DNA of 45,555 nucleotides from a virus: UHGV virus genome UHGV-2198558; one strand, written 5' to 3'. The notes beneath the pieces are model-generated. The model worked only from the letters and a program-made list of their open reading frames with translations, was not told the DNA's origin and made no database searches. Position 1 is the stretch's first letter, and each line of letters opens with the position of its first letter. This document shows, piece after piece, positions 3,046 to 8,863 of the stretch. The translations under genes and the position numbers were made by a program.

Positions 3046-3681
3046 TTATACAGCCTTTTCCATCACTACCTCAGTCAAAGCCCTCTTGCATATCTCAGCA
3101 GGATTCCCGTTCGGCTTTATCCAGCTTTCAACGTCCTCTCTACTCAGTATCACCGGCATTCGGTCGTGGATGCTTCTCAGTTCCTCGGTTGCGTCCCGTG
3201 TGATTACCGCAAACACCGGGCAATTAACTCCGTTTCTCTCCTCGATCCTATACAACAGCCCAGCAAGCAGCGTAGATTCGGCTCCTTTCGGCTGTATCAG
3301 GTATTTATCGCCAACCTTCTTCTTTTTCCCGTCCGGACTCCTGAAATGCTCCCATTCAAAGTACCAACTGCTCGGAATTACGCATCTACTTCGGAACCAT
3401 GAGTCCTTCCACATTTCCTTCTGGTCAGCCGTTTCGAGGCGGCAGTTCACGATTGGAGCATCGGTCGCGTCATGACTGAAACCCCAGAGCATCGGAAAAA
3501 CTTCCATTCTTCCGTCCTTATTCGGTGCTAAAACCGCAGCAACATCAGTCGGACGCAGTTCACCGGACATAAACAGCGGTTTGCCGAGTTTTACCATGAT
3601 AGTATTCGCTAGCTCCAGTTTCTGTGCCCGTGTGATCAGCGGAGCGAACTGAGCAGGCTCTACATAGAAGCGTGTACACAT
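3046..3681 (-). CDS. SOS response-associated peptidase (SRAP / YedK / DUF159 family)
   Basis: Begins MCTRF with Cys at position 2 (family hallmark), plus a conserved HDRMPVIL segment; 211 aa. Confidence 0.8.
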   Translation of the reverse strand: MCTRFYVEPAQFAPLITRAQKLELANTIMVKLGKPLFMSGELRPTDVAAVLAPNKDGRMEVFPMLWGFSHDATDAPIVNCRLETADQKEMWKDSWFRSRCVIPSSWYFEWEHFRSPDGKKKKVGDKYLIQPKGAESTLLAGLLYRIEERNGVNCPVFAVITRDATEELRSIHDRMPVILSREDVESWIKPNGNPAEICKRALTEVVMEKAV

Positions 3682-3695
3682 AAGACCACGACCTT

Positions 3696-4253
3696 TCAGC
3701 CTTCGATCATTCTCAGCTTATAGTGTTTTCGGCAGAGTGCTGTATAACTCTCATTACCGCCGAGCTGTACCTGTTCTCCCTCTGTGACCATTTCACCGTT
3801 CAGGAGTCTTGCATTGAAGTGCGCTCTTTTGCCGCACCAGCAGATGGTCTTGATCTGCTCAATATCGTCTGCAAGCTCCATGAGCCGCTGTGCGCCGGGA
3901 AACAGATGACTCTGGAAGTCTGTCCGCAGGCCGTAGCAGATAACTGTGATGCCATGAAAATCCACAAGATCACTGAGCTTGTCTATCATTTCAGGTGACA
4001 GGAACTGCACCTCGTCAACGATGATACAGTCATAATGCTCACCATTATAGTCAGCAAGGAAGTTTTCAGCAAACTCGCAGGGTTCTTCAAGTCCGATGCG
4101 GGATTTTAGGTTCTTCGCACCGTCCCTGTCCTCGCATCTCGGCTTCAGCAGAAGCACTTTTTTGTCTCTCTCATAGTAGTTATATCGAACCATAAGCGCA
4201 TTGGCGGTCTTGGAGCTGCCCATTGCGCCGTATCTGAATATCAGTTTTGCCAT
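3696..4253 (-). CDS. tdk: Thymidine kinase
   Basis: P-loop GAMGSSKT, VDEVQF, and C-terminal zinc-binding cysteines (CWCGKRAHF...CRKH); 185 aa. GAGGAG RBS sits inside the 3' end of the repressor gene. Confidence 0.88.
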   Translation of the reverse strand: MAKLIFRYGAMGSSKTANALMVRYNYYERDKKVLLLKPRCEDRDGAKNLKSRIGLEEPCEFAENFLADYNGEHYDCIIVDEVQFLSPEMIDKLSDLVDFHGITVICYGLRTDFQSHLFPGAQRLMELADDIEQIKTICWCGKRAHFNARLLNGEMVTEGEQVQLGGNESYTALCRKHYKLRMIEG

Positions 4254-4258
4254 CTGCC

Positions 4259-5131
4259 TTACTCCTCATCGTCCTCGTGCATGACTTCATATCGCTTGAT
4301 ATCTCTCTTGCTTGCAATGGAAGCGGGTTCAAGGATACCGAGAACGCGCCCGATCAGAGTGACATTGTCATATTCTGTGAATGTCATGGTATCATACTTA
4401 TCATTAAACGATACCAGACCTTCTTCCTCATATATCTTTATGTATGTACTGTTTCCAACCATGAAAGCGCCGACCTCATCGTATTGCAGCTCCGGACAGC
4501 CGGGATACTTCTCCACAAGAACAAGGTCGCCGTCATGATACTCAGGCTCCATACTGTCGCCGTTGACAGGAAACACAAGGTCTGCCTGCCGTATTGCTGT
4601 GTTCGTATTCGGATACAGATAGATCGGTGTTCCGTTGTCCTCAAACTCCGCCCCGCCGTCAAAGCCTGCTGCAAGCCCCTTGTCGCAGAGTGTCAGTTTG
4701 ATGATCTCCGGGAAGCTGCCGACAGTCTCTGCCGCTTCAAGCGAGGATAGCAGACTGTCCATTGCAAGCTGGTGCGGATACGACAGTCCACGGTATCTCT
4801 CTACCATAGACTTTTCCTTATCAGTATAGGTATCTTGCTTGTTTTCGATGCCATATAGTTCATACAGCGTGATACCAAGTGCGTCACATAGCTTAGGAAC
4901 AACGCTGAAATCCGGGCGGGTTCTTCCGTTCTCCCAGTTACTGATAGCATTTGAGGTCACGCCGATTTTTTCTGCAATCACTTTCTGATCTAATTTTAGA
5001 CGCTCCCTGTAGTATTTGATGCGACCGCCAACCGCGTGAGCGTCCTTACGGTGGGCAGGATCAGAGATGTTACTCTTAATATCCTTGCCTCCCTGTGAGA
5101 CTGAGATATTCGGTTTCTTACGCTGTTTCAT
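4259..5131 (-). CDS. Prophage repressor, CI/LexA-like (XRE-type HTH plus S24 self-cleaving peptidase domain)
   Basis: HTH segment IKYYRERLKLDQKVIAEKIGVTSNAISNWENG; S24 motifs VNGDSMEPEY and GDLVLV. Start set to ATG 5131 (AAGGAG 9 nt upstream); the ORF-track start at 5149 is a TTG. Confidence 0.85.
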   Translation of the reverse strand: MKQRKKPNISVSQGGKDIKSNISDPAHRKDAHAVGGRIKYYRERLKLDQKVIAEKIGVTSNAISNWENGRTRPDFSVVPKLCDALGITLYELYGIENKQDTYTDKEKSMVERYRGLSYPHQLAMDSLLSSLEAAETVGSFPEIIKLTLCDKGLAAGFDGGAEFEDNGTPIYLYPNTNTAIRQADLVFPVNGDSMEPEYHDGDLVLVEKYPGCPELQYDEVGAFMVGNSTYIKIYEEEGLVSFNDKYDTMTFTEYDNVTLIGRVLGILEPASIASKRDIKRYEVMHEDDEE

Positions 5132-5291
5132 TACAAAGCTCTCCTTCAAGAATGTATGGGATAGTCAATCCTCAAAACGAACAAATATTCTTATTGAAAT
5201 CTGTGCAACCCTACAAAGTTTATCAAAGACTTTTCAACGCTGAAAACGTTAGAAATGCGAAATTTGGCGTAGGCATTGCATCTTTGATCAC

Positions 5292-5333: not shown

Positions 5334-5362
5334 TTGCAATTCGTTTGACGGTGTGATATAAT
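5334..5362 (+). promoter_or_regulatory. Divergent rightward promoter
   Basis: TTGCAA, 17-nt spacer, TGaTATAAT; back-to-back with the repressor promoter. ATTGCA-type repeats (5274-5339) are candidate operator half-sites. Confidence 0.5.
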
Positions 5363-5563
5363 AGCAATGTCGGTATTCCGCCTACAGGAAAATGAGACCG
5401 AAGGCTGGTGCAGTGTGTCCGTCTTAAGGTGTGTGACAGGACAGACTGCCGGTCAGAGTACCGACAACTTCGCCATCAACCCACTTCGCCACGATAGATA
5501 TACAGAACAATAGAATGGAGCTAATGTTGGAAATACCATAAGTTGCGAAACAGGAGGGCGTAA

Positions 5564-7492
5564 ATGACTATATATCTTGATAGAGGACCGTTTCTCACCA
5601 TTCCCGACAAGCTGCATTCGGGGCAGTACAGAGTGATCCGCAACCCCGACTGGCACGGAGTACTGCCGGAGATCGTGTCCTTCACCGATTTTCTCAAATG
5701 GAATTACACACTGGAGTATGGTCAGTATATCCGCAAATTGCACTACTACCACCAGCTTCCGCTGCCGTGGGTCGTTCCACAGGATGCCGAGATAGAAACT
5801 GTCATCATCGAGGAAGGCAGATATGACCGCATTGATCACAATTCCTTTGATATGTATGTGATATGCGATGTCGTGTTCGAGATGAACGGCTGCCGGCAGT
5901 GCCAGAAGTATATCGTACACGGCTTTTACTGCTCTTACGGCGGTTCAGACTTTCTGTGCGGTGCGGAGCTCTACAATGGTCAGTTTATCCGGCTGAACAA
6001 TCCCTTAGATGAGTTTCTGGTTCCCATCCTTTCAAAGAAAGAATTTGCAAGCATTGCACAAGCAATCATCGACCACTACTATTCATACAAATCGAATTAT
6101 CCCTGCCGCATCAATACTGCTTCAATTGCAAAGGCAATGGGTCACGATATAAAGTATGCCAGACTGTCAAAAAACGGAAATGTCAAGTCCAAGCTGATCC
6201 TGGACAAGCGGGATACGACCGTCTATGATAAGGAATACAAAGCTGTCAAAATGCGGATCGACAGTCCTACGATCCTTGTGGACGAGTCATTGGAGGAGGA
6301 TGAAGCGCAGAACGCCATTATTCATGAGTGCGTTCACGCTTACCTTCACAACCTCTTCTATGAGCTGCAGAGCTACTATCGGAAAATGGTCGGCAGGAAG
6401 ATGCCGGAGTTCAATGACTACTTCTATTCCAAGACGCAGCGTAGCTGCCTGAAATGGATGGAAACACAGGCAAATGCCATCCCACGCTTTATTCAGATGC
6501 CGGAGGAGCAGGCATCCGATGTCATCCTGAACTTCTTCGAGCGACTCCCCGGAGAGCCTGACTGGGACGATTACAGAGAACTGATCGACCTTGTGAAATG
6601 GAAGTTCGGAGTATCCCGCAATGCTGCGAAGAAGCGTATCATTGAGCTTGGCTGGCCGGAGGTGCGCGGTGTGTATGTCTACAACACCACAGGATATGTT
6701 GAGGACTACGATGTAGAGCTAAGATTCCCGCAGGACTATACCTATACACTGTCATTCCGCCAAATCTCTGATGTGTTTGCATCCTGCGAGACCTTCGCAG
6801 AGCTTGTCCGTTCCAAGAAGTTCATCTATCTGGACGGTCATGTTGTGATCAACAGCGACAGGTATATCCGCAAGGAACACGGCTTAGCTATGGGCTTGAC
6901 AGAGTATGCTAGACACCACATGGCAGAGTGCTGTCTGGATTTCAAGCGTATCTACGCAGAATTCGACTACAGCTATACCTATGGCGAGCTACACAAGGAT
7001 GACCTGACCGAGATCACGGCCGAAAACCGTTCGTTCAGCGATGAACAGCGAAAGAAGATCCGCATGGCAATGTATGAGATCACAGAAGAAAACTATAAAC
7101 TGACCGTTCCTTCAGATGTCAACGAATTCGGCAAGGCGGTGCGTTTCCATATGGAGAGATGCGGTCTCACCTCGGATCTGGTTGCAGACCGCAGCGGCAT
7201 GGGTGTGAACACTGTCAATAAGATGCGCAGTGGCAAGAGAGTGAAGCTCGAAACAGTGCTAGCTTTTTGTGTCGCTTTGGAGCTTGAAGAGTCGTTCCGC
7301 ATTGACCTTATGCAGAAAGCGAAGGTTGATTATGATATGAGCAATCCTGCCCATCGGCTCTATGTCACGATCTTTGAGCTGATGCCGAAGGCAAATGTCT
7401 TTCAGATCAACGATCTGCTGAAGGCAGAAGGCTTTACGCCGTGGACGAGGGACTGCGAGGAAAAGAAGCGGTATGCTAAGAAAAGTATGTAA
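5564..7492 (+). CDS. Large regulatory protein: HExxH (ImmA/IrrE-like) metallopeptidase motif plus C-terminal XRE-type HTH
   Basis: 642 aa; CAGGAGGG RBS; IIHECVHAYLH motif mid-protein; C-terminal HTH (GLTSDLVADRSGMGVNTVNKMRSGKR). Confidence 0.7.
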   Translation: MTIYLDRGPFLTIPDKLHSGQYRVIRNPDWHGVLPEIVSFTDFLKWNYTLEYGQYIRKLHYYHQLPLPWVVPQDAEIETVIIEEGRYDRIDHNSFDMYVICDVVFEMNGCRQCQKYIVHGFYCSYGGSDFLCGAELYNGQFIRLNNPLDEFLVPILSKKEFASIAQAIIDHYYSYKSNYPCRINTASIAKAMGHDIKYARLSKNGNVKSKLILDKRDTTVYDKEYKAVKMRIDSPTILVDESLEEDEAQNAIIHECVHAYLHNLFYELQSYYRKMVGRKMPEFNDYFYSKTQRSCLKWMETQANAIPRFIQMPEEQASDVILNFFERLPGEPDWDDYRELIDLVKWKFGVSRNAAKKRIIELGWPEVRGVYVYNTTGYVEDYDVELRFPQDYTYTLSFRQISDVFASCETFAELVRSKKFIYLDGHVVINSDRYIRKEHGLAMGLTEYARHHMAECCLDFKRIYAEFDYSYTYGELHKDDLTEITAENRSFSDEQRKKIRMAMYEITEENYKLTVPSDVNEFGKAVRFHMERCGLTSDLVADRSGMGVNTVNKMRSGKRVKLETVLAFCVALELEESFRIDLMQKAKVDYDMSNPAHRLYVTIFELMPKANVFQINDLLKAEGFTPWTRDCEEKKRYAKKSM

Positions 7493-7506
7493 TAACGGCA
7501 TTTTCA

Positions 7507-7531
7507 GGAGGCTTTCGAGCCTCCTTTTTTT
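7507..7531 (+). terminator. Rho-independent terminator
   Basis: ggaggct / agcctcc stem with a ttcg tetraloop, followed by TTTTTTT. Confidence 0.8.
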
Positions 7532-7794
7532 ATGCCCTGAAATATTTTCATGAAGCCCCCAGAAAAAATGGGGGCGATTTGCGTTTTTGAAATAGTTTAG
7601 AGACAGAATGTTCATAGAATATCCATTTAATTTAGATGATATGAACAAGTGAAGATGATATATCAAAGTTGAGATAAGCACAGTGCATAAAAAGCAGCCC
7701 CCATTTTTTATGTATGTAAAAGAAGATTCGGATATGTTATGATATAGACACGGTCAAGGACAGGCACCACCTTCCAAGACTGAAACACCACAAT

Positions 7795-7915
7795 GCCGGA
7801 TGCATACGGCAGAGGATGTTCATATGATATCTGAACAGAATGCCATAGGTATACCCTGTGGTCGGAAGCCGATGTCATATGTCTACTCTGTGCTATGCAT
7901 CCGGCTATTTTTTTT
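7795..7915 (+). ncRNA. Candidate structured RNA element or complex terminator
   Basis: Perfect 12-bp inverted repeat gccggatgcata (7795-7806) / tatgcatccggc (7894-7905), extended by cagag/ctctg, enclosing about 70 nt and followed by T9 (7907-7915). No ORF with an RBS in the surrounding 600-bp intergenic region. Confidence 0.25.
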
Positions 7916-8140
7916 GCCGCGGCATTCGGAGCATGGCAATTAGATCATTACATTTGTTAGTCAGGGCGCGCACTGGCGGACAGATGCTCATAGCGGAAAT
8001 AACATCACGATTTGGAGTCTGTATAGACTGACAAGGTGTATTTCGTGTGGACATCGTCCCCTGCGTGCCTTTTTCTCTGGGACAGCAGTCGCGTTATGGG
8101 CATCTGCCGCTTGGTGTGTTCCTTGCAGAAAGGAACGATT

Positions 8141-8863
8141 ATGGAAAACGCAAATGTTCAGAATGCTGCCGCTATCACCGATAAGACCACCCTCGGCGAA
8201 CTGCTTGCAATGCTTGACCTCGCTGATAAGGCAGGCAAGATGCCGACACCGAGAGAACTGTTTGAGACTGCCGGTTCGCCGATAGCCGATATGAATGGCT
8301 GCACTCTCTTCAGCAACGGCTTCGCCATCTATCAGAATGTCACTGGGCGCACTGTTGTCTGGCTGCCGTACTGCAAGAGCTTCACCTATTACTTCGGCAA
8401 GCTCCGTGATTCCGAGAAAGACACGCTGACAGAGACCTATGAGCTGCCGGATGGATTTCTGGAAACACAGCCGTGGGTGATCGCAGTAACACTGATCGGC
8501 GACCATCGTGTGGAGGCAAACAGCATGAACCGCACCGGCAGCCGCAAGGATACCACAGATTATGACAGCGCCGATAACGGCGATAAAGACGGTGATGCAG
8601 AGGAGGCTTTGGCAGATCCGTATCGCAGGGCATTCAACTGGTATGACGGACGCATGGGCGAGAATCCGCAGGATGCCGTGGAGCGCAGAGAGACACGCGA
8701 GGAGATGCTTGCAGACATGACGGACAAGCAGCGTGAAGCCTTTATTATGTACTTCAGGGATGGTATGACGCAGGAAGAGATTGCTTCATATATAGGGGTA
8801 AGCCGTGATTCCATAAATGACAGGCTTGAAGGTGCTTTGAAAAAAGCAAAAAAATATTTTTAG
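8141..8863 (+). CDS. Sigma-70 region-4-like HTH protein (putative phage transcription regulator)
   Basis: C-terminus LTDKQREAFIMYFRDGMTQEEIASYIGVSRDSINDRLEGALKKAKK resembles sigma region 4; no region 2 recognised. Start at ATG 8141 after GAAAGGAA. Confidence 0.65.
   Translation: MENANVQNAAAITDKTTLGELLAMLDLADKAGKMPTPRELFETAGSPIADMNGCTLFSNGFAIYQNVTGRTVVWLPYCKSFTYYFGKLRDSEKDTLTETYELPDGFLETQPWVIAVTLIGDHRVEANSMNRTGSRKDTTDYDSADNGDKDGDAEEALADPYRRAFNWYDGRMGENPQDAVERRETREEMLADMTDKQREAFIMYFRDGMTQEEIASYIGVSRDSINDRLEGALKKAKKYF

Follow-up and report, generated by a model that had tools for sequence, protein, structure and literature searches.

The 45,555-nucleotide stretch of viral DNA analysed here (UHGV virus genome UHGV-2198558; hereafter the window) carries on its plus strand a 111-nt long-stem hairpin, H1 (7795-7905), which on comparative grounds appears to be the core of a conserved and previously uncatalogued structured RNA of about 165 nt. 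A promoter motif, the predicted fold, compensatory changes in the paired positions and a U-tract strongly support a discrete, structured, terminator-ended plus-strand RNA. A first-pass annotation of this region had raised the possibility of a small RNA, and that much of its proposal stands, although a free-standing regulator acting in trans now seems less likely. We favour, with about even confidence, the reading that H1 is a cis-acting, promoter-proximal long-stem terminator or attenuator that gates the early genes, and that the terminated product is the small RNA.

Genetic neighbourhood of the element

The window represents a Firmicute-type temperate phage or prophage. Pfam and sequence comparison identify a CI/LexA-like repressor with HTH and S24 peptidase domains (4259-5149, minus strand), whose gene stands in a facing arrangement with that of a 642-aa protein combining an IrrE/M78 peptidase domain with a C-terminal HTH (phrog_4031; 5564-7492, plus strand). 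A gap of 648 bp separates the latter from a gene for a 240-aa sigma-like protein (8141-8863), in which sigma-70 region 4 is the sole domain. Two small genes and then a DUF2800 gene follow 3' of it (tblastn), and the large ORFs listed beyond these we take to be a PolA-type polymerase and the remainder of the replication module. No tRNA or tmRNA genes were found in the window.

The interval 7532-8140 had been described as gene-poor, and it indeed contains no conserved ORF, as the short ORFs within it vary in frame, start and length among relatives; it does, however, hold a putative promoter, two long hairpins and a structured leader. We rejected a small protein gene in this interval on the grounds that the short ORFs on both strands lack a conserved frame, start or length, and we rejected a recurring peptide (MSICPPVRALTNKC) as a gene product, given that it is the translation of an invariant RNA block (block A, below) and has no ribosome-binding site. 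The ORF finder also gave the sigma-like gene an in-frame 5' extension that begins at a GTG (8036). Because this extension (8036-8140) is located in the conserved structured leader, inside the 3' arm of a second long hairpin and a Shine-Dalgarno (SD) hairpin, it is almost certainly not translated, and the true start is the ATG at 8141, with AAGGA just before it.

Two tandem terminator-like hairpins were called on the plus strand past the IrrE-like/HTH gene, at 7506-7531 and at 7555-7575 with a U-rich tail. The first is the upstream terminator that the first-pass annotation had reported. The second, annotated there as a cccccag-aaaaaat-ggggg hairpin, is likewise present, as GCCCCCA/GAAAAAA/TGGGGGC at 7555-7575, and its pairing is kept through a double change in one relative (L067; GCACCC/GGGUGC). 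It lies outside the H1 RNA and is part of the upstream terminator/insulator region; judging from their structure and position, the tandem hairpins (7506-7587) would insulate the RNA promoter from transcription arriving from upstream.

Several further features of the surrounding DNA were observed. Complementarity of 94% links the 16-nt arm 7560-7575 to 7697-7712, at a distance of 121 nt. In L067 both GCCCCCA copies and the partner of the first, UGGGGGC, have changed in concert (GCACCC / GGGUGC / GCACCC). These arms enclose a palindrome, TGTTCATA...TATGAACA (7609-7647), which shows a symmetric change in L035 (TATTCATA...TATGAATA). Arms and palindrome (7555-7712) could constitute an operator or an additional RNA or insulator structure 5' of the RNA promoter. 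A near-consensus extended -10 element, TGATATAAT, occurs at about 5354-5362 behind TTGACG, roughly 200 nt 5' of the start of the IrrE-like/HTH gene, and the sequence of this CI-divergent control region (5346-5563) would imply a long, possibly structured 5' UTR for that gene. On the minus strand at 78-2899, the gene of a 503-aa HATPase_c_3 (GHKL ATPase) protein adjoins that of a 365-aa protein without a Pfam match, and genes for SRAP (3046-3681) and thymidine kinase (3696-4253) share this lysogeny-side accessory region with the GHKL ATPase gene; the group may be a prophage-borne defence or accessory cassette.

Structure of the long hairpin H1

H1 is formed from three stem segments that join as a single continuous hairpin, namely a 12-bp perfect stem (7795-7806/7894-7905), CAGAG/CTCTG (7810-7814/7886-7890) and an 11-nt repeat (7821-7831/7871-7881). 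The perfect stem and its cagag/ctctg extension had been recognised in the first-pass annotation, and both prove to be part of this larger structure, for which the minimum free energy (MFE) is -57.4 kcal/mol (z -6.2) and than which none of 200 dinucleotide shuffles folded as well. The opposite strand gives a weaker fold (-47.7 kcal/mol). In the hairpin about 40 positions pair, the internal loops are conserved, and the basal perfect stem, which ends in CCGGC, extends from the 12 bp of the window to 15 bp in most relatives. The 5' arm (GCCGGAUGCAUACGGCAG..GGAUGUUCAUA) is almost invariant, the interior varies yet pairs in every variant, and the apical loop CUAUACC is partly conserved. Each 16-nt arm is nearly palindromic by itself, and in nascent RNA the first 16 nt of H1 are predicted to fold as a mini-hairpin, GCCG[GAUGCAUA]CGGC, in 23 of 23 cases.

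A usual intrinsic terminator has a stem of about 7-9 bp and a loop of 3-8 nt (PMC10325885). H1 shares with such terminators a G+C-rich stem abutting a U-tract, but it is not a compact hairpin, at 111 nt with internal loops, and a consensus terminator scan did not call it.

The motif ATG(T/C)TCATA was observed four times in 400 bp (7608, 7640 on the minus strand, 7816 and 7984), at sites in the upstream palindrome, the H1 5' arm and the 5' arm of the second hairpin. Across the whole window, ATGTTCATA had 19 matches against 10.5 expected, a marginal enrichment.

Conservation and covariation of H1

The sigma-like protein was the sole means of retrieving the first set of related loci, no DNA feature being required. 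H1 was present upstream in 11 of these 15 loci, whose sigma-like proteins share 52-100% identity, and the 5' arm GCCGGATGCATACGG was unchanged there. Pattern searches of viral and genome collections brought the total to 37 distinct H1 variants; the search patterns included the H1 arms, so that arm invariance in this larger set is partly a matter of ascertainment, but the protein-retrieved loci show the same arms. The relatives come from Ruminococcus and Oscillospiraceae genomes, including the cultured R. flavefaciens 007c, and from rumen and gut viral contigs. In R. flavefaciens 007c the element occupies 3375-3545 of locus L087, on contig NZ_ATAX01000017.1. When 16 nt were removed from each end, the remaining interior still folded as a single hairpin in all 37 variants, spanning at least 81% of the interior with a median z of -3.7. 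These interiors fall into several classes, and alignment across classes with MAFFT failed.

The H1 of the window scored 143.7 bits against a covariance model (E 3.5e-26). That model detects a single copy in each locus, apart from a faint echo of the palindromic stem on the reverse strand. The covariation-based structure search that had been suggested with the first-pass annotation finds the stem conserved in related phages and prophages: in the model alignment, canonical pairing holds for 92% of cells, and double changes that compensate each other occur at 14 of 32 pairs. The same alignment holds 86 G·U cells against 26 A·C cells, and the plus strand was more stable than the minus strand in 26 of 37 variants (p = 8e-4). 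The excess of G·U over A·C together with the greater stability of the plus strand indicates selection on RNA, or at least on a single strand, of plus polarity, and the G·U/A·C asymmetry would in itself speak against a palindrome of double-stranded DNA.

The covariance model found no copies in the distant sigma loci L011-L013 and, in L014, mere echoes (E about 0.5) on leaders of the H2 type described below. A search anchored on the inner stem for variants with other basal arms returned same-arm members alone. No Rfam 15 family, 6S, EAR, c4, known sRNAs and riboswitches included, matched anywhere in the window at the gathering score, and relaxing the threshold to E up to 10 over 7000-8600 yielded four chance-level matches, none of which fell on H1, on the 5'-terminal hairpin P1 or on H2. 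Among 50,697 GenBank phage records searched by blastn, none matched the intergenic region, and a literature search found no prior description of the element. We put forward the H1 RNA as a candidate new RNA family, of the kind formed by phage and mobile-element leader RNAs with terminators.

The predicted transcription unit

An extended -10 promoter motif, TGTTATGAT (7735-7743, plus strand), is found at fixed spacing in relatives: TGnTAnnnT starts exactly 14 nt 5' of a conserved CACAGTCAAGG motif in 24 of 37 variants. The remaining 13 yielded no extended -10 motif, and one relative (L038) has a -35/-10 match, CTGTCA-17-TATGAT, at the equivalent position. From this motif we infer a transcription start at about 7750, at the foot of P1 (7751-7782, plus strand), a hairpin identified from predicted folds and covariation.

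P1 consists of a stem CGGUC/GACUG, a conserved tandem AA/AA internal loop, a covarying inner stem GGA/UCC and a variable tip, with fold energies of -7 to -18 kcal/mol. Each of its eight pairs shows at least one double change (8/8), and column pair 13/88 changes from A-U to G-C in nine sequences. P1 was predicted in all promoter-bearing variants save L028, and because it is absent in L028 and L047, it is not essential and H1 is the indispensable part. Between the two hairpins lies an A/C-rich linker (7783-7794, plus strand; consensus AAAACAAYAYC...), conserved in alignment A1 and unpaired in all predicted folds.

The U-tract TATTTTTTTT (7906-7915, plus strand) directly abuts H1 and presumably marks the 3' end of the short RNA. 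It had been given as T9, and the actual tail is T-A-T8; the first 9 nt past the H1 stem contain six to eight T in 37 of 37 variants. P1, linker and H1 together make up a predicted product of about 165 nt. Within 7906-7935 the sequence past the U-tract is conserved as TTTTTATGCC, often TATGCCGCGGC, a short palindrome that, once transcribed, has the potential to base-pair with the CCGGC at the H1 stem base.

A two-state leader ahead of the sigma-like gene

A second long hairpin, H2 (7963-8071, plus strand; RNAalifold consensus), precedes the sigma-like gene. Its MFE is -48.8 kcal/mol (z -2.6), with 95.8% of cells paired and 12 pairs showing double changes, values that none of 500 shuffles matched. 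The arms of H2 resemble those of H1 (GAUGCUCAUA vs GAUGUUCAUA; L014 vs L010). Because the U-run behind it (8070-8074) is merely 4-5 nt, any terminator activity at H2 would be weak. Neither H2 with its two-state leader (7950-8137) nor P1 nor the promoter had figured in the first-pass annotation.

Alignments define a nearly invariant block of 47 nt, block A (7950-7996, plus strand), which forms the H2 5' arm, is the switching strand of the leader and has a core, GAUG(C/U)UCA, resembling the H1 5' arm. In the window and the relatives nearest to it, a conserved distal block joins block A to build H2. An inverted repeat at 8092-8124 (plus strand) provides an alternative partner, pairing with about 7953-7995, and takes in the 5' half of an SD-sequestering hairpin, GUUCCUU-GCAGA-AAGGAAC (8118-8136, plus strand), that ends 5 nt before ATG 8141. 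The SD hairpin is conserved in long leaders, with 91.6% of cells paired in alignment A3, and recurs in short leaders in the variant forms GCGUCC..GGACGC (L010, L023) and GUGUCC..GGACAC (L078).

Two conformers are predicted. Conformer A contains H2 as well as the SD hairpin; in conformer B, block A enters a long-range helix with 8092-8124, which leaves the SD sequence free. Among 12 leaders, the MFE structure was conformer A in nine and conformer B in three (the window, L003 and L089). The long-range helix comprises 38 pairs with 88.6% of cells paired, and both conformers exceeded shuffle and slide controls. A G-to-A change in alignment column 23 is compensated at both of its alternative partners, columns 147 and 207, a dual compensation that we read as the hallmark of a true RNA switch in control of the sigma-like gene.

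One relative (L014) encodes two tandem sigma-like genes, each behind its own H2-type leader, block A included, and SD hairpin (2409-2617 and 3793-4003). Because these leaders occur without H1, the H1 and H2 modules are separable, and the H2 leader appears, from this arrangement, to travel with the sigma-like gene as a separate module.

Position relative to the early operon

In relatives, the H1 element occurs once per locus and is always co-oriented with the operon. The gene order is IrrE-like/HTH, H1, an optional DUF4406-like gene, the sigma-like gene, p151, p164 and DUF2800, and the placement of H1 3' of the IrrE-like/HTH gene holds even where the proteins share only 21-26% identity. The next start codon lies 51-260 nt past H1, and in about a dozen loci 51-72 nt past the U-tract; these short spacers precede DUF4406-like genes. 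A consensus scan of two of them (L038 and L072) found no promoter, reading the window by eye from 7906 to 8140 revealed no extended -10 motif, and the promoter region has no 11-mer in common with the CI/IrrE divergent control region. On the simplest reading of this arrangement, the promoter at 7735-7743 would serve the early operon, and polymerase would have to pass H1 for expression.

The same RNA element was also observed before a ParA/Soj-like ATPase gene, rather than a sigma-like gene, in two loci (L070, 4270-4373; L071, 5746-5848), which suggests that plasmid-like prophages or other mobile elements employ it as well.

Interpretation of the element

As a terminator or attenuator in cis, the element would work as follows. 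The extended -10 promoter would start the RNA at about 7750; P1 would form first and H1 next, directly abutting the U-tract; by default, polymerase would terminate at H1 and free a stable RNA of about 165 nt, and the early genes would be expressed solely when polymerase reads through. In this phage, the read-through RNA would then meet H2 and the leader that hides or frees the sigma-like ribosome-binding site. The 5'-arm mini-hairpin on the nascent RNA would be the likely recognition point for a factor, phage- or host-encoded, that sets the level of read-through. Transcription start, termination, regulated read-through and the existence of such a factor are what we infer from computed structure, motifs and gene order.

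Pairings that could compete with H1 were sought on both sides. The 30-nt flanks of H1 are not complementary (median z 0.1, with z < -2 in 2 of 37), and pairing of the 5' leader with the H1 5' arm gave a median z of 0.28. Given that no antiterminator pairing was found, any regulation would need a factor. The 12-15-bp perfect basal stem with its U-tract may also make termination so efficient that read-through is negligible, in which case the downstream genes would need another promoter.

A more elaborate version, which we offer tentatively and regard as clearly less probable than the gate itself, is a new lysis-lysogeny checkpoint in which tandem related long-stem hairpins and a dedicated factor acting on the 5'-arm mini-hairpin decide between the hairpin RNA and read-through. 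The promoter may in that case be unrepressed, and the candidates for the factor are the syntenic IrrE-like/HTH protein and the sigma-like protein. The long double-stranded hairpin, once released, might have a trans-acting role as well, for instance that of a decoy for a nuclease or dsRNA-binding protein of the host.

The strongest competitor, though in our view an unlikely one, is a free-standing trans-acting sRNA, in which the ~165-nt transcript of P1, linker and H1 is the functional product, acting by base-pairing with phage or host targets or as a double-stranded decoy for an RNA-binding protein, and the downstream genes are transcribed independently. Sequence motifs give the unit its own promoter and a terminator-like end, the 5'-terminal hairpin and long stem would confer stability, a conserved single-stranded CA-rich linker and the partly conserved apical loop could be read in its favour, and L028 and L047 encode scarcely more than H1. 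On the other hand, the element always heads a co-oriented operon, no promoter was seen in the 51-72-nt spacers scanned (L038 and L072), no complementary partner was seen within the leader itself, and the best-conserved sequence is hidden inside the stem, not displayed in a loop. A gate in cis is the likelier of the two because of the position at the head of the operon, the short spacers and the lack of any intervening promoter found.

We consider it improbable that H1 and H2 serve instead as RNase III substrates in RNA processing, stability or translation, like the T7 early sites or the lambda N leader, with cleavage setting mRNA stability or freeing the ribosome-binding site and termination incidental. 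The roughly 40 paired positions and conserved internal loops would suit such a role, as would the short U-run of H2 and its coupling to an SD-sequestering hairpin, where covariation backs both conformers. The strong, universal U-tract at the base of H1, however, is a feature that a processing site does not need.

Somewhat less probable again is a processive antitermination RNA acting in cis, like HK022 put, B. subtilis EAR or Tn916 canT, in which promoter-proximal RNA modifies the polymerase so that solely transcripts from this promoter pass downstream terminators. The element is promoter-proximal and heads a long operon of a mobile element encoding a sigma-like protein, terminators shield its promoter from upstream transcription, and there is a parallel in Tn916, where the promoter of the sigma-like orf7 drives canT (PMC11658703). 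Against this, P1 is dispensable in some lineages (L028, L047), the element is predicted to end in a strong terminator of its own, no Rfam match of any kind was obtained, and long stems confer resistance to conAn antitermination (PMC10325885).

Least probable is a DNA-level element. It could be a near-palindromic operator pair (GCCGnATGCATnCGGC) bound by a dimeric repressor, or a cruciform, or else, beside the replication module, an initiation site on single strands such as the sso of rolling-circle plasmids. Each 16-nt arm is nearly palindromic, replication genes lie immediately downstream and single-stranded DNA hairpins likewise tolerate G·T pairs, but GCCGnATGCATnCGGC with at most three mismatches has five matches in the whole window against 3.0 expected, with only the two arms convincing, the variable interior remains paired as operators do not require, the orientation, one-sided T-tract and fixed-distance promoter fit a transcript, and the G·U versus A·C asymmetry counts against a double-stranded DNA site. 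The operator hypothesis was rejected, the arm palindrome not being repeated elsewhere and no motif being common with the CI/IrrE divergent control region.

The rumen and gut harbour abundant temperate phages of Ruminococcaceae and Oscillospiraceae, whose lysis-lysogeny control is, to our knowledge, essentially unstudied. The element offers a concrete, conserved RNA handle at the point where the lysogeny module meets the early lytic genes, with a predicted promoter and a predicted 3' end that are both defined, invariant nucleotides that can be mutated, and one cultured host (R. flavefaciens 007c). Should H1 prove to be a regulated gate, the known attenuation mechanisms would gain, beside the recently described zipper type, a terminator whose long stem has a sequence-specific arm, and this would point to a new antitermination factor. 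If it is only an sRNA, it would still be a new and well-supported RNA family suitable for Rfam.

Comparison with known systems

In phage lambda, the PR'-qut-6S RNA-tR' unit places a terminator close behind a promoter, so that a short RNA is the default product and downstream genes need read-through. The H1 leader is alike in having a promoter closely trailed by a terminator, as predicted here. Lambda and HK022 use an ordinary short terminator, with Q acting at a DNA site and N and put at RNA sites; at the H1 locus none of those sites or proteins is identifiable, and the operon is an early one, whereas the PR' unit is late. The CI RNA of satellite phage P4 comes from the leader of the early operon and is tied to premature termination of that operon, and its mode of action is pairing with seqA and seqC, complementary repeats within this leader. 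No such repeated targets were found in the H1 leader, and a protein CI/LexA-like repressor is also present in this phage.

The Tn916 canT RNA (PMC11658703) and H1 are both RNAs of Firmicute mobile elements that are linked to a sigma-like gene, to the control of termination and to the head of the main operon. canT is an antiterminator that needs about 340-450 nt and has no terminal terminator of its own (PMC11658703), and we detected no sequence or structural similarity between it and H1.

Terminator behaviour is known to depend on stem length (PMC10325885), and the TerR terminator of pLS20, whose stem length was shown to determine its behaviour towards antitermination (PMC10325885), shares with H1 an intrinsic-terminator architecture in which the stem goes far beyond the 7-9 bp norm. 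TerR has a 15-bp stem and stands at the end of an operon (PMC10325885); H1, in contrast, has about 40 paired positions in 111 nt and a sequence-invariant 5' arm, and stands at the start of an operon, right past the promoter.

Leader attenuators built on a long imperfect stem occur in Gram-positive mobile elements (PMC13401043), and here the counterpart is the cATT zipper-type attenuator of pLS20-family conjugative plasmids (PMC13401043), which likewise lies in the 5' leader of the element's main operon. Both leaders have an unusually long imperfect stem-loop behind a weak stem-loop (H1 and P1 in this phage), both carry their most conserved sequence on a 5' strand, and an RNA-binding factor has been proposed for both. 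In cATT, a separate small terminator hairpin lies past the long stem, which extends over it as an antiterminator (PMC13401043). In the window, L038 and L072, terminator calling picked up no separate small terminator from H1 to the following gene, and a zipper-type antiterminator was rejected for H1, as its flanks are not complementary and their duplex energy is no better than that of shuffles. The U-tract of H1 instead abuts the long stem itself, and the element sits in a phage, ahead of genes that Pfam and sequence comparison identify as sigma-like, DUF4406-like and ParA-like.
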